Shown here: piece after piece, positions 1,397 through 41,750 of the stretch | Layout of the letters: every line of letters begins with the position of its first letter | Numbering within the stretch: the first letter of the stretch is position 1 | Source: Octopus sinensis | Lineage: Eukaryota | NCBI RefSeq assembly: GCF_006345805.1 | Contig: NC_043025.1 | Span: 15,004,001 to 15,068,000, forward strand | Direction of reading: 5' to 3' | Length of the DNA: 64,000 nt | Made by a program: the position numbers and the translations under genes | Notes under the pieces: model-generated | What the model was told of the DNA's origin: nothing | The model's database searches: none | The model's input: only the letters and a program-made list of their open reading frames with translations

Positions 1397-1655
1397 TTGC
1401 AGCGTTGAAGGTGTTTATAAGCCATTTAAGAAACACACAAAAGCCGTTCGATTCACTTCAACATTTAAATTTAATTTGTCAAAATATTTTCGTCGCTTTG
1501 AGACCGCGGCCTGTTAGCACGATATTTTTGTCAGTGAACAGGTCGCGGTCTGAAAGCGAGGAAAATATTTTGGCAACTTAAATTTAAATGTTGAAGTGAA
1601 TCTAACGGTTTTTGTGTGTTTCTTAAATGGCTTACAAACACCTTCCACGCTGCAA
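1397..1655. repeat. ~125-bp-arm inverted repeat carrying an HHR-like fold
   Basis: ttgcagcgttgaaggtgttt... vs ...aaacaccttccacgctgcaa; HHR-like fold at 1527-1577 (+). Confidence 0.85.
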
Positions 1656-1724
1656 TATATATATACACACATATATATATATGTATGTATGTATGTGTGT
1701 ATATGTGTATGCATGTATGTGTGT

Positions 1725-1950
1725 GTGTGTGCGTGTCTGTGCTTGTGATTGTCCTCCACCACTGCTTGACAACGAATGTTGGTTTGTTTACATCCCTGTC
1801 ATCTAGTGGTTTGACAAAGGAAACAGATAGAATAAGTACAATGCTTACAAAAATAAAACTGGAGTTGATTCATTAAACTACAATTCTTCAAGGCATTGCC
1901 CCAGCATGGCCACAGACCAATGGCTGGAAAAAGCAGAAGAATAAAAGAAT
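1725..1950 (+). mobile_element. SINE family 1, 3' half
   Basis: Diverged match to 7440-7630 (cttgacaac...gatagaataagtac...cagcatggcc). Confidence 0.7.
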
Positions 1951-2014
1951 ACATTCTCTGCTTTGGTCTTATGTTCAAGGCATGAGAAAGCTTGAGTTTA
2001 CATGAGAAGGCCTA

Positions 2015-2250
2015 ACAGACCTGGTAGAAACAGCAGCCAAATCTCCCTCAAATCACACCTTACTGTCTTATGTATGTATATATATATAAGCCAATGAGGG
2101 GGACCTCTACATGGTAGCTAGACCTGGTAGAAATAGCAGCCAACTTTCCCCCAAATCACACCTTACTGTCTTATCTATGTATATATGTATGTATGAGCCT
2201 ATGAGGGAGACCCCACTACGGTTATTTAATGTAAAGTCTTCCTCAAATCA
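2015..2250 (+). repeat. ~105-bp tandemly repeated short element
   Basis: agacctggtagaaa-agcagccaa...caaatcacaccttactgtctt twice plus partial; related copies at 39090-39230. Confidence 0.65.
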
Positions 2251-2667
2251 CTCTCGCTATTTACTCTCTTCCAAGAACATTTTCACTCACTCTTATCTCT
2301 TAGCTTGCCATACATTTTACTCATGTATCTATCAGCGTGATAGACAGAAACGAATATTATATCACCATCGCCATCTACCTGTCAACACACACACAGTGAA
2401 TTACTTTCATTTTATTCGTTGCACACTGTGTGTGTGTGTGTGTGGTGTAAACCACATTAAGAAAAGCATTTGACATACACACCAGAATGTGAGTTTTCTG
2501 TAAATTTTGCTTAATTGGAGTTTAAATTTTAAAAAGTGGACCTGGCATGACCCGATGCATTCTACTCTTAAAAATGCTAGGTAAATTGTAATTGAAGAAA
2601 TCCTATATTGTAGATTTCTATAAGTGACAAAGGGAGGCAGATAAAATCTGCCTTTTATAATAAGAGA
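2237..2667 (-). mobile_element. Helitron family A, 5' part
   Basis: 2400-2667 near-identical to 548-824; TC 5' end at 2667. Confidence 0.7.
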
Positions 2668-2989
2668 TATAGAGAGAGGTACAGGATCATCAAAAAAGTA
2701 GATACTCACAGAGCTAGGTTTCTGGATGTTATCTGTCCTCAGTGTGAGACAACCACAAGGTAGTGATGAAGTCGCGTAAGGCTAGTGATGGGTGCGATGA
2801 CCTCCCTAGCAAATGCTATATGGACACAAACTGTGTGCCAATAGCCAAAGATGTTTTCCTGGGGCTAAAACAACAGTAACATCATCCTGTATAGGACTAC
2901 CACATTCTGTTGCCATATAAACATTACCATATACTATATATGTGTGTGTGTGTGTGTATATATATATATGTGTGTGTGTGTATATATGA

Positions 2990-3140
2990 TGAGCTTTTTT
3001 CAGTTTCCATCTACCAAATTCACTCATAAGCCTTTGGTCAGTGCAAGGATATAGTTGAAGATACCTGCCCAAGGTACCATGCAGTGGGACTGAACTTGGA
3101 ACCATGTGGTTGGGAAGCAAGCCTCTTACCGCACAGCCAT
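2990..3140 (-). mobile_element. SINE family 1, 5' half
   Basis: Reverse-complement match to 7230-7385. Confidence 0.7.
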
Positions 3141-37838: not shown

Positions 37839-38574
37839 TGTATGTATGTATGTATGTATGTATGTAATGCATGTATGTATGTATGTATGTAATGCATGTA
37901 TGTATGTATGTATATATATATATGTATGTATGTATGTAATGCATGTATATATGTAAGTATGTATGTATGTATATATGTATGTAAGTATGTATGTATGTAT
38001 ATATGTATGTAAGTATGTATGTATGTATGTATGTATGTATGTATGTATGTATATGTAAATATATATGCATACGTAGTATTGGTGATGCAAGCAGGAAATA
38101 GAACATGTGTGTGTTTGTGTGCATTATTTTTTTATTTACTACTGATAAAAATATACCTCGTATATATATATATATATATAATATATATATATAATATATA
38201 TATATATATATATATATATATATATATATATATATATATATATATATATATATATATATATGTATGTTGTATGTATGTATGTATGTAATATGAATACATG
38301 GGTAAAGTGAGTGTGTATGTTTGTATATAGGCATGCATCAATTGATGTTATATGTGTGTGTGAACACACATACATGGATAAGCAATCAGAAAGAGGGCAG
38401 GGCGGACGGGAGGGGAAACAAAGGGAATGGGGGAGGGAAGAACATGTGTACCCTGTTAGTGATATCAGTTGCATTCTTCAGGGTGGGCCAGGATCTTTAA
38501 TTCAGGGTGGCTAAATGAAGCATGGTAAAAACTTATCTCAGAAACAACGAAATTACTGCATTACATTATCTTCT

Positions 38575-39060
38575 CCACCACCACCACCACCACCACCACA
38601 ACCACCACCACCACCACCACCACTACCACCATCACCACCACTATCACCACCATCACCACCACTACCCACACCACCACAACCACCACCACTACCACCATCA
38701 CCACACTATCACCACCATCACCACACTACCCACCACCCCTACACCACCACCACCACCACCACCCCACCACCACCATCACCACCACCACTACCACCATCAC
38801 CACCACCATCACCACCATCACCAACACCATCACCACCACCACCATCACCACCATCACTACCAGTACCATCACCACCACCACCAACTCAACCACCACCACC
38901 ATCACCACCATCATCACCACTACCACCACCACCACCACTACCACCACCACCAACACCATCACCATCACCACCACCACTATCACCACCACCATCACCACCA
39001 TCATCATCATCACCACCACCACCATCACCACCACCACAACCACCACCAACACTACCACCT
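38575..39060. repeat. Degenerate (CCA)n trinucleotide tract
   Basis: Directly visible. Confidence 0.95.
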
Positions 39061-39294
39061 ACACAAGGCAATGAAGAAGGCGTTTTCAATGGTAGCTAGA
39101 CCTGTTAAAAATAGCAGCCTAATCTCCCTCAAATCACACCCTACTGTCTTATGTATGTATGAGACAATGAGAGCTTTCAACATGGTAACAAGATATGGTA
39201 GAAATAACAGTCAAATCTCCCTCAAATCTCTCCCTTCCTCAGGCATTTCCACTGCATTCATCTTGATGCAGTGGAATTGTTTTATTAGGTATTC

Positions 39295-39640
39295 TCTCTT
39301 TTACTCTTTTACTTGTTTTAGTCATTTGACTGTGGCCATGCTGGGGCACCACCTTTAGTCGAGCAAATTGGTCCCACAACTTATTCTTTGTAAGCCCAGT
39401 ACTTATTCTATCGGTCTGCCAAACGACTAAGTTACGGGGATGTAAACACACCAGCATCGGTTATCAAGCGATGTTGGGGGGACAAACACAGACACACAAA
39501 CACATATATATACATATACCTATATACGACAGGCTTCTTTCAGTTTCCGTCCACCAAATCCACTCACAAGGCTTTGGTCAGCCCGAGGCTATAGCCCAAG
39601 GTGCCACGCAGTGGAATTGAACCTGAAACCATGTGGTTTG
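39295..39640 (-). mobile_element. SINE family 1
   Basis: Reverse-complement match to 7270-7640. Confidence 0.85.
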
Positions 39641-40554
39641 TCACGTCCTCACGTTGTTGTTTTTTCTTGCTTGTTCATGTTTGGATTGCCTATATACCAC
39701 CTGCTCACACGGACCCCGGCCTTCTGACTGACTTTGGAGTAACCAATTCCTGGAATTCTTATACCTGCCGATTACTGTTCCCATTCATTCGGATTATGCC
39801 ACTCTAATCTTGATTGGAAATCGTCACAATTTGTCCGCGAATTCTTCCACTTTTTCTCATCCTCCTTTTACCTTTCTTCCTTCTTTCTACTTCCACCTTT
39901 CTCTTTTTGTCGCCACCAATAACACCTACACCAACATTCACACCCTCTCACCATGCCTCACCTCCACTCCTTCCTCCAACACCTTCAATTCCTTCTTCCT
40001 TCTCTTGCACTCTCCTGTCTTTGAAAGAACTTTTTCTTCATCCATTCCCTTCCGGTCATTTCAATATGTGACCGTGTGCATATCGTTGGCGATTTTCTTT
40101 CTCCGTCTTTCCTTCTTTCTTTTCTTTCCTTTCCTGAGTGTCCAATATTCCATGTCCTCTCGTTATTCCACGTCCTCTCGTTGTTTTTCCTTGCTTGTTC
40201 ATGTTTGGATTAACTGTCTATATATATATATAATAATTTAATAAATAAAACATATGCATACATACATACATATAAGTACGTACCTACATCTATATATATA
40301 TACATGCATATATTTATATATATATATATATATATGAGTACAGGACACCACAAATAAACGTAGAACACGAGAAACGAAAATATAAAATCAAACAAGGAAA
40401 CGGACTTTTTTTAACAACGAAAAAACAGAGTACAAGACAACCAATTCAAGGAATATTCCCTTTCATCAGCTGCCCCTGGTTCAACTCAATGCGTGTTTTG
40501 AAGGTAAGGGCAATACATAAATTATATATATATATATATATATATATATACACA

Positions 40555-40858
40555 CTAGCAGTATCACCCAGCGTTGCTCGGGTTTTTAAGGGAAATAATT
40601 ATATAAGCATTTTTAGAGAGTTACTTCTCTTATATAAACCGAGCAAAAAATGCCTTAAAAAAGGAAAAAAATGATGGTAAATTTTTTTTTAATCGTAGAC
40701 TCATCGTAGACGCACGCTAATACCCAGAAGGGCTCGATATGAATCACGACTATAAGATACCCGCTTTTGGTTAAACTGCACCGCAAAATGTGGGAGTAAT
40801 TAGGAATCAAAATCGGAGGAGACAGACTCTCACACAACTTCAGTTTTATATATAAAGA
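40555..40858 (-). mobile_element. Helitron family B
   Basis: Reverse complement of 34549-34847 family; TC...CTAG. Confidence 0.85.
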
Positions 40859-40904
40859 TATACTTATATATATATACAGTACATATATATATATATATAT
40901 TAGA

Positions 40905-41750
40905 TACTCTTTTACTCTTTTACTTGTTTCAGTCATGTGACTGTGGCCATGCCGGAGCACCGCCTTTAGTCGACCCCAGGACTTATTCTTTGTAAGCCTA
41001 GTATTTATTTTATCGGTCTCTTTTTTGCCGACCCGCTAAGTTACGGGGACGTAAACACACCAGCATCAGTTGTCAAGTGATGTTGGGAGGACAAATACAG
41101 ACACACACACACACACACACACACACACACACACACATATATGTATATATATATATATATATATATATATATATATATATAGAATATTCTCCTGAATTGA
41201 ACTGCGACTGCCAGCCGCCACTGACCATTCAAAATACGACCATCAGGGCACTCTCAGATTCTCCCACCCCCTTTCCTCATCAGCCTTCTTCCTCTACTAC
41301 CCTACCAAGAACTCACAACGACCTCCAACACACAAGTGCAAACAAGGGAGTCAGAGAAAGGCAGAATGCCACTTATATCTGAACACTACTATAGAAATAT
41401 TCCTTTAAAAAAACTTTTCTTCTAATTTTTCTAAATTTAATTATTTAATCGTTACAGTTGAAAAGGTCTCAAAATGACTGAAACCGGTACTGAAATGTTC
41501 ACTATAAAATTATTTTAGCATTTTCTATTTTTGACTTGTTTTTTCATATATATATATATATATACATATATATATACATATATACGACGGGCTTCTTTCA
41601 GTTTCCGTCTGCCAAATCCACTCGCAAGGCTTTGGTTGGCCCGAGACTATAGTAGAAGACACTTACCAAAGGTGCCACGCAGTCGGACTGAACCCGGAAC
41701 CATGTGGTTGGTAAGCAAGCTACTTACCACACAGCCACTCCTGCGCCTAT
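40905..41750 (-). mobile_element. SINE family 1 split by an insertion in its internal microsatellite
   Basis: Tail 40905-41105, head 41585-41750; insert ~41180-41545 carries an HHR-like motif. Confidence 0.7.
41455..41492 (+). ncRNA. Minimal type I HHR, U3-A8 core variant
   Basis: CAG-TTGAAAA-GGTCtcaaaatGACT-GAAA-CCGG-TA-CTG. Confidence 0.55.

Follow-up and report, generated by a model that had tools for sequence, protein, structure and literature searches.

Hammerhead-like motifs with G3-C8 or U3-A8 pairs in putative Penelope-like and retrozyme-like repeats of Octopus sinensis

The stretch of the Octopus sinensis genome (2.7 Gb) analysed here, referred to as the window, is 64,000 nucleotides (nt) long, covers positions 15,004,001 to 15,068,000 of contig NC_043025.1 (assembly GCF_006345805.1) and is rich in microsatellites and repeats. 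At least nine hammerhead ribozyme-like motifs were found on it. Five of them have a non-canonical core heptamer, namely GTGAACA starting at 1534, TTGAAAA at 29223 (+), 28854 (-) and 41458 (+), and TTGAGGA at 35372. A sequence-only reading had placed these heptamers in hammerhead folds, and all five were located in type I folds, in which stem II comes after the heptamer, then GAAA, then a stem III segment that is palindromic, and last a U-H site. The motifs were assigned to families A (29223 and 28854), B (41458), C (35372) and D (1534); families E and F are later-found relatives of D.

A descriptor with positions 3 and 8 left free (all 16 combinations) was run on 864 kb, made up of 80 blind 10-kb stretches and the window. 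It gave 26 matches, with U-A at 3-8 in 13, C-G in six, G-C in one and other combinations in six, while shuffled controls gave means of 0.6 U-A, 0.4 C-G, 0 G-C and 4.4 in total. The Rfam hammerhead models did not match the family A motif at 29223 or an intact G3-C8 copy of family D at E≤10, and the family B motif at 41458 was matched by HH9 alone, below threshold (15.4 bits against a cut-off of 52, E 0.2). No hammerhead was among the matches listed (150 of 202) in a whole-window Rfam scan, nearly all of which were microRNA models on microsatellites and hairpins. Standard searches thus overlook the cores of families A, B and D, as the sequence-only reading had expected of canonical searches.

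The family D motif of the window is a minimal type I hammerhead at 1527-1577 (+) with G3-C8, the core at 1534-1540 and a predicted cut after U1570; its start at 1527 agrees with that given by the sequence-only reading. Stem I is formed by 1528-1533 and 1571-1576, an extra G is at 1541, stem II is formed by 1542-1546 and 1556-1560, G12 is at 1561, the AATATT palindrome is at 1564-1569 and U17 is at 1570. A supposed loss of G12 at this site (201 G versus 2,249 non-G) was rejected, as the counted position belongs to loop II and the earlier register, with GAAA at 1552, was wrong. The window copy is damaged, having G in place of C11.1 (a G-G closing pair in stem II) and, in stem I, a G.U pair. It lies on an inverted duplication of the 3' part of the family D pseudo-long terminal repeat (pLTR) at 1397-1655, the left arm of which stops inside the core. 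This 260-bp inverted repeat folds as a single rod of -183 kcal/mol in which the hammerhead would be hidden, and the copy is probably inactive; in isolated intact copies of the family, stems I and II form the minimum-energy fold. The C11.1 to G change is present in 22 of 31 such arms of the loci closest to the window copy. These loci are part of a composite repeat, 1.4 kb or more in length, which occupies 824-2214 and beyond in the window, was recognised at 29 loci (91-98% identity over 0.8-1.7 kb) and carries the damaged family D palindrome as a passive passenger. Part of the composite repeat also matches 54750-54989, beside a Helitron-like Pif1 helicase fragment (54972-55523).

When the flanks were fixed, 4,238 pattern matches of family D were counted in the genome; the window copy falls outside this count because its C11.1 is G. 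G3-C8 was present in 3,903 of the 4,238, so that G3-C8 at 1534 is the state of its family and not a sporadic mutation. G3 was found in 4,140 copies, 237 of them without C8, and 95 of the 98 copies without G3 keep C8; C3-G8 was absent from all 4,238 matches. The subfamilies differ in loop II (9, 8 or 7 nt), in N7 (A or C) and in stem III (6 or 4 nt, both palindromes), and G3-C8 is constant among them. Fourteen old copies were collected by the downstream flank alone; a core was left in seven, with G3-C8 in six (two of which look like duplicates) and U3-C8 in one. Assembled contigs from three sequencing runs (organism codes A, B and E) cover the family D core without any alternative letter at position 3 or 8 at a 5% threshold; in a fourth run the core was not covered.

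The family D motif is linked to an open reading frame (ORF). At locus L253 it lies about 1 kb downstream of the end of a GIY-YIG ORF, and it was found 0.86-1.13 kb downstream in 21 of the 30 best matches to the family D endonuclease; one of the nine loci without it offered just 187 bases of flank. Locus L314 has an open frame of 1,042 amino acids (aa) in which YVDD and a CX3CxxC linker were recognised and which ends in GIY-YIG. The reverse transcriptase of D was recognised by YVDD and by a weak match to that of family B (24%, E 2e-6). A CX2-5CxxC linker, a Neptune/Nematis feature by the definition given in PMC8557442, is present in B and D. On four long family D loci no direct 5' pLTR was seen, and two of them have an inverted one. 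Of eight stretches in which D motifs are paired, six had no Penelope ORF by reading and none was matched by family B proteins in tblastn; only L253 led to the D ORF. On the D loci a branch point, a pyrimidine tract and an AG about 12 bases before stem I were noted at L253:1238-1260 (-) and L314:2555-2575 (-); neither a splice joint nor any ends were present in the assembled contigs aligned to an intact copy, which come from runs none of which is on record as RNA.

A search with the family D endonuclease led to families E and F, whose endonucleases are 50-56% identical. In the tree, which does not order D, E and F among themselves, the three form a single clade against B (100/100). The hammerhead of E lies 430-960 bases past the ORF and has U3-A8 in 13 of the 15 best loci of the family; of 2,017 genome matches, the first 100 comprise 90 U3-A8, seven C3-A8, one C3-U8 and two U3-G8. 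Identical U3-G8 motifs of E were noted at the distant sites C1:39658383 and C1:80483271 and also at L369, possibly a small wobble-pair subfamily. The hammerhead of F lies 460-560 bases past the ORF, where the motif was present in 15 of 15 loci, one with G3, and the family state is C3-G8 (95 of the first 100 of 2,524 genome matches). The window carries a family F copy at 23825-23864 (-) with the core at 23861-23855, a canonical C3-G8 homolog of D that was missed by the sequence-only reading. In the dominant young F subfamily (L349-L363, and genome-wide) position 9 is C and not A, while A9 is found in older copies and in that of the window. Among diverged relatives, a recognisable downstream motif was absent in 17 of 20 E-like and six of nine D-like loci, and no fourth 3-8 state was seen.

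The proteins of D, E and F are homologous, each family has its own 3-8 state and each motif is linked to the ORF; the three RNA motifs are taken to be homologous as well. In all three, position 9 is followed by an extra G, stem II has 5 bp (GUYRC/GYRAC) and position 17 is a pyrimidine, while the flanks have random identity between families. An alignment of 16 hand-chosen rows, the shuffle control for which ignores kinship, has GC in eight, CG in four, UA in three and UG in one at 3-8. Both sides change in three of six named pairs, namely 3-8 and two stem II pairs, and 99% of cells pair, compared with 9-54% when the strands are slid. U4, G5, A6, G12-A15.1 and U16.1 are invariant on these rows, and two-sided changes are seen in stem I as well (UCA/UGA, CUA/UAG, CCA/UGG). 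The sequence-only reading had proposed that the 3-8 pair is kept by covariation. This holds between the sister families, where C-G, U-A and G-C stand in three lineages; inside each family there is just fixation by descent and no covariation. A Watson-Crick pair is the majority state at 3-8 in each of the 15 multi-copy clusters found in 1.98 Mb of sequence that the searches had enriched (10 C-G, four U-A, one G-C); six of the clusters were targeted, and the nine untargeted ones are eight C-G and one U-A.

The sequence-only reading saw U3-A8 in two separate families, and it is the family state of both A and B, not a sporadic mutation. The family A insertion (28660-29500) is built of a tandem unit of about 360 bp with an inverted part, has no ORF and is retrozyme-like. 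Its type I hammerhead at 29217-29257 (+) has U3-A8, a 6-bp stem I, an ACGCGT palindrome and a predicted cut after C29251; the inverted copy, also U3-A8, is at 28819-28860 (-). Units are 358-363 bp apart, ten in a row at L139 and often part inverted, and no ORF was found in the two tandem arrays read. When the flanks were fixed, 1,090 exact U3-A8 copies were counted; the exceptions are four copies without U3, all with A8, and two without A8, both with C8, and none is C3-G8. The family B minimal hammerhead at 41455-41492 (+) has U3-A8, an ACCGGT palindrome and a predicted cut after A41489. It belongs to a solo fragment, at about 41330-41560, of the pLTR of an endonuclease-positive (EN+) Penelope-like element, and when G10.1-C11.1 and the stems were checked, a G.U pair was noted in this copy. 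With positions 3, 7 and 8 free, 1,985 matches of B were found, 99 of the first 100 being U3-A8, and all eight copies without U3 keep A8. At locus L133 the element is arranged as pLTR-ORF-pLTR, with RVT_1 and, at the C terminus, GIY-YIG. In family B (41410-41457 of the window) an AG ends directly before U3, so that a splice at this point would exchange the 5' strand of stem I for another sequence; splicing of this kind is reportedly found in Drosophila virilis Penelope. Further U3-A8 minimal hammerheads of other families were noted in the blind sample at L155:4381 (-), L155:4459 (+) and L162:9794 (+).

Family C is a repeat of 750 bp, and its window copy at 35370-35447 (+) has U3-G8 and a stem I that does not close (A opposite G). 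Among 37 matches, 31 are C3-G8, three C3-A8, one C3-C8 and two U3-G8, one of these being the window copy; none is U3-A8. The family state is non-canonical in A, B and D, while that of C is canonical with the window copy as a sporadic mutant. Just downstream of the family C hammerhead, at 35489-35541, lie 53 bases that run from GT to AG like an intron, with a strong donor.

When the families are compared with the type I hammerhead, the invariant core (U4, G5, A6, A9, G12, A13, A14, A15.1-U16.1 and H17) is present in A, B, C, D and E, while young F copies have C9. Canonical C3 and G8 belong to families C and F only, and a Watson-Crick 3-8 pair is the majority in all six families and absent from the window copy at 35372. 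In intact family copies stems I and II close on the core, with G10.1-C11.1; this is broken at 1534 (C11.1) and at 35372 (stem I). The stem III palindrome is ACGCGT in A, ACCGGT in B, AATATT or AATT in D and AATT in E, and F has 2 bp with an AA loop.

Minimal type I hammerheads of Penelope-like pLTRs have been reported, including U3-A8 in Schistosoma mansoni Cercyon with about 1,300 matches (Cervera and De la Pena 2014, PMC4209133). The octopus motifs resemble them in the type I fold, short palindromic stem III, short stem I, G10.1-C11.1, pLTR position, solo and inverted copies, and U3-A8. The representatives in Fig. S3 of that paper are C3-G8, U3-A8 and once U3-G8, none being G3-C8, and three 3-8 states among sister families, as here, differ from what it describes. 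The consensus there has H after position 9, whereas the extra base is G in D, E and F and is absent in A and B. Natural C3-G8 to U3-A8 covariation was described by Perreault et al. 2011 (PMC3088659), the core-variation section of which does not name natural G3-C8, so that U3-A8 is already published both in nature and in Penelope-like elements. G3-C8 was met as a laboratory mutant (PMC3884650, PMC8495972, PMC11167929). The engineered C3G/G8C hammerheads of Anolis Poseidon (PMC11167929), in a Penelope context, and of Schistosoma (cited in PMC8495972) have the same pair and are partly active, whereas family D bears it naturally in thousands of copies. The relevant passages of PMC6765202, PMC6155905, PMC10085705, PMC7229834 and PMC8557442 do not name natural G3-C8, and no natural G3-C8 family was found in the literature searched, which left outside its scope Lünse et al., a survey of variant Penelope hammerheads that is larger than any other and may contain such a family. 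The same literature search found no cephalopod hammerheads. Family A is similar to the non-LTR retrozymes described by Cervera and De la Pena 2020 (PMC7229834) and in bioRxiv 10.64898/2026.07.22.740005 in its tandem units of about 360 bp, type I fold, 6-bp stem I, 4-bp stem II and lack of an ORF, and it differs in the U3-A8 core. What appears to be new is G3-C8 as a family-wide natural variant of a predicted ribozyme, with covariation among sister families.

Probably (about 0.75), the motifs at 1534, 29223/28854 and 41458 are hammerheads of Penelope-like or retrozyme-like families with G3-C8 or U3-A8, whose 3-8 pair is likely selected in the transposing masters, and 35372 is a decayed C3-G8 copy. 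From sequence, we infer selection, dimer formation and cleavage of these predicted ribozymes. By analogy with known Penelope hammerheads, two motifs on a tandem pLTR transcript would pair through the palindromic stem III, probably aided by the protein of the element. G12 would act as the base and the 2'-OH of N8 as the acid, the N3-N8 Watson-Crick pair would keep N8 in place, with any Watson-Crick pair tolerated at some cost in rate, and the cut after N17 would set free RNA of unit length, to be reverse transcribed. In the Anolis Penelope hammerhead, C3G or G8C abolishes cleavage, the double change partly restores it, and cleavage needed protein (PMC11167929). The conformation that cleaves is the one in which the 3-8 pair is made, so that the survival of this pair through double changes among sister families argues, on evolutionary grounds, that catalysis is selected. 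More tentatively, one Penelope clade may have passed through C-G, U-A and G-C at 3-8, and a natural active G3-C8 hammerhead, undescribed so far, would then exist in thousands of copies.

Several results weigh against this interpretation. Full-length D ORF had no match in Pfam at E≤0.1, predicted dimer energies were no better than those of two monomers for D, B and E, and the set of alignment rows and clusters was partly of our own choosing, as given above. The D/E/F pattern alone is not significant, because there are two change events and about one-third of double changes would give a Watson-Crick pair by chance. A core change can spread in this clade, as C9 did in F, and this change and the extra G may cost activity; reportedly, an extra G reduced the activity of a viroid hammerhead. 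In the Anolis system insertion in vitro did not require cleavage, and the site showed no RNA ends (PMC11167929).

Alternatively, the motifs may derive from hammerheads, no longer need cleavage and persist as a signal for protein binding or folding, the 3-8 pairing being partly a coincidence fixed by master-copy amplification. The spread of C9, the extra G, the lack of covariation within families and insertion without cleavage all agree with such a signal, as does the slow cleavage of minimal hammerheads. It is nevertheless unlikely, as both 3-8 partners changed twice, each time to a Watson-Crick pair, none of the 15 clusters has a mismatched majority, and the core positions are fixed on the 16 rows next to random flanks. 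For the G3-C8 and U3-A8 families, selection on the fold rather than decay, as had been proposed, is regarded as likely; the copy at 1534 is itself damaged.

The proposal of selection extended to U3-G8 at 35372, and there it failed. Saccoglossus is represented by U3-G8 in Fig. S3 of PMC4209133 and two identical U3-G8 rows are among the first 100 family E matches, so a selected wobble variant has some precedent, yet it is very improbable in family C, where U3-G8 (2 of 37) is rarer than the C3-A8 mismatch (3 of 37). The U3-G8 of this copy is read as decay because the family majority is C3-G8 and the closing base of stem I is lost. Least credible of all is that the 1534 motif is a chance look-alike in a DNA palindrome (a miniature inverted-repeat transposable element or foldback) with the stems as by-products of the inverted repeat: the copy does sit at the centre of the 260-bp rod and within the composite repeat, but both hammerhead stems belong to a single arm, in many copies the inversion is missing or lies at other points, sister families have a homologous motif, and its position after the GIY-YIG ORF in 21 of 30 loci largely refutes the idea.

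Penelope hammerheads may or may not need to cleave; they are slow in vitro, and insertion did without cleavage in the one reconstituted system. If one Penelope clade did pass through three paired 3-8 states with an active G3-C8 hammerhead, ribozyme chemistry, beyond a hairpin, would be selected during Penelope transposition in vivo, and a slower core would be tolerated or preferred. Families D, E and F are a natural series suited to cleavage assays. In this genome alone, about 9,000 motifs overlooked by descriptors and Rfam come from families A, B, D and E.

Three further canonical C3-G8 hammerheads are present on the window, at 32298 (+), 31576 (-) and 56698 (+), the first two being an inverted pair of one family. 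A 420-aa reverse transcriptase frame (RVT_1) of an element of the long interspersed nuclear element type is coded at 7743-9005 (-). The window also has a perfect 80-bp palindrome at 4079-4158, a tandem array of about 12 units of about 350 bp at 48436-52770 and a 55-bp tandem array at 62942-63833.

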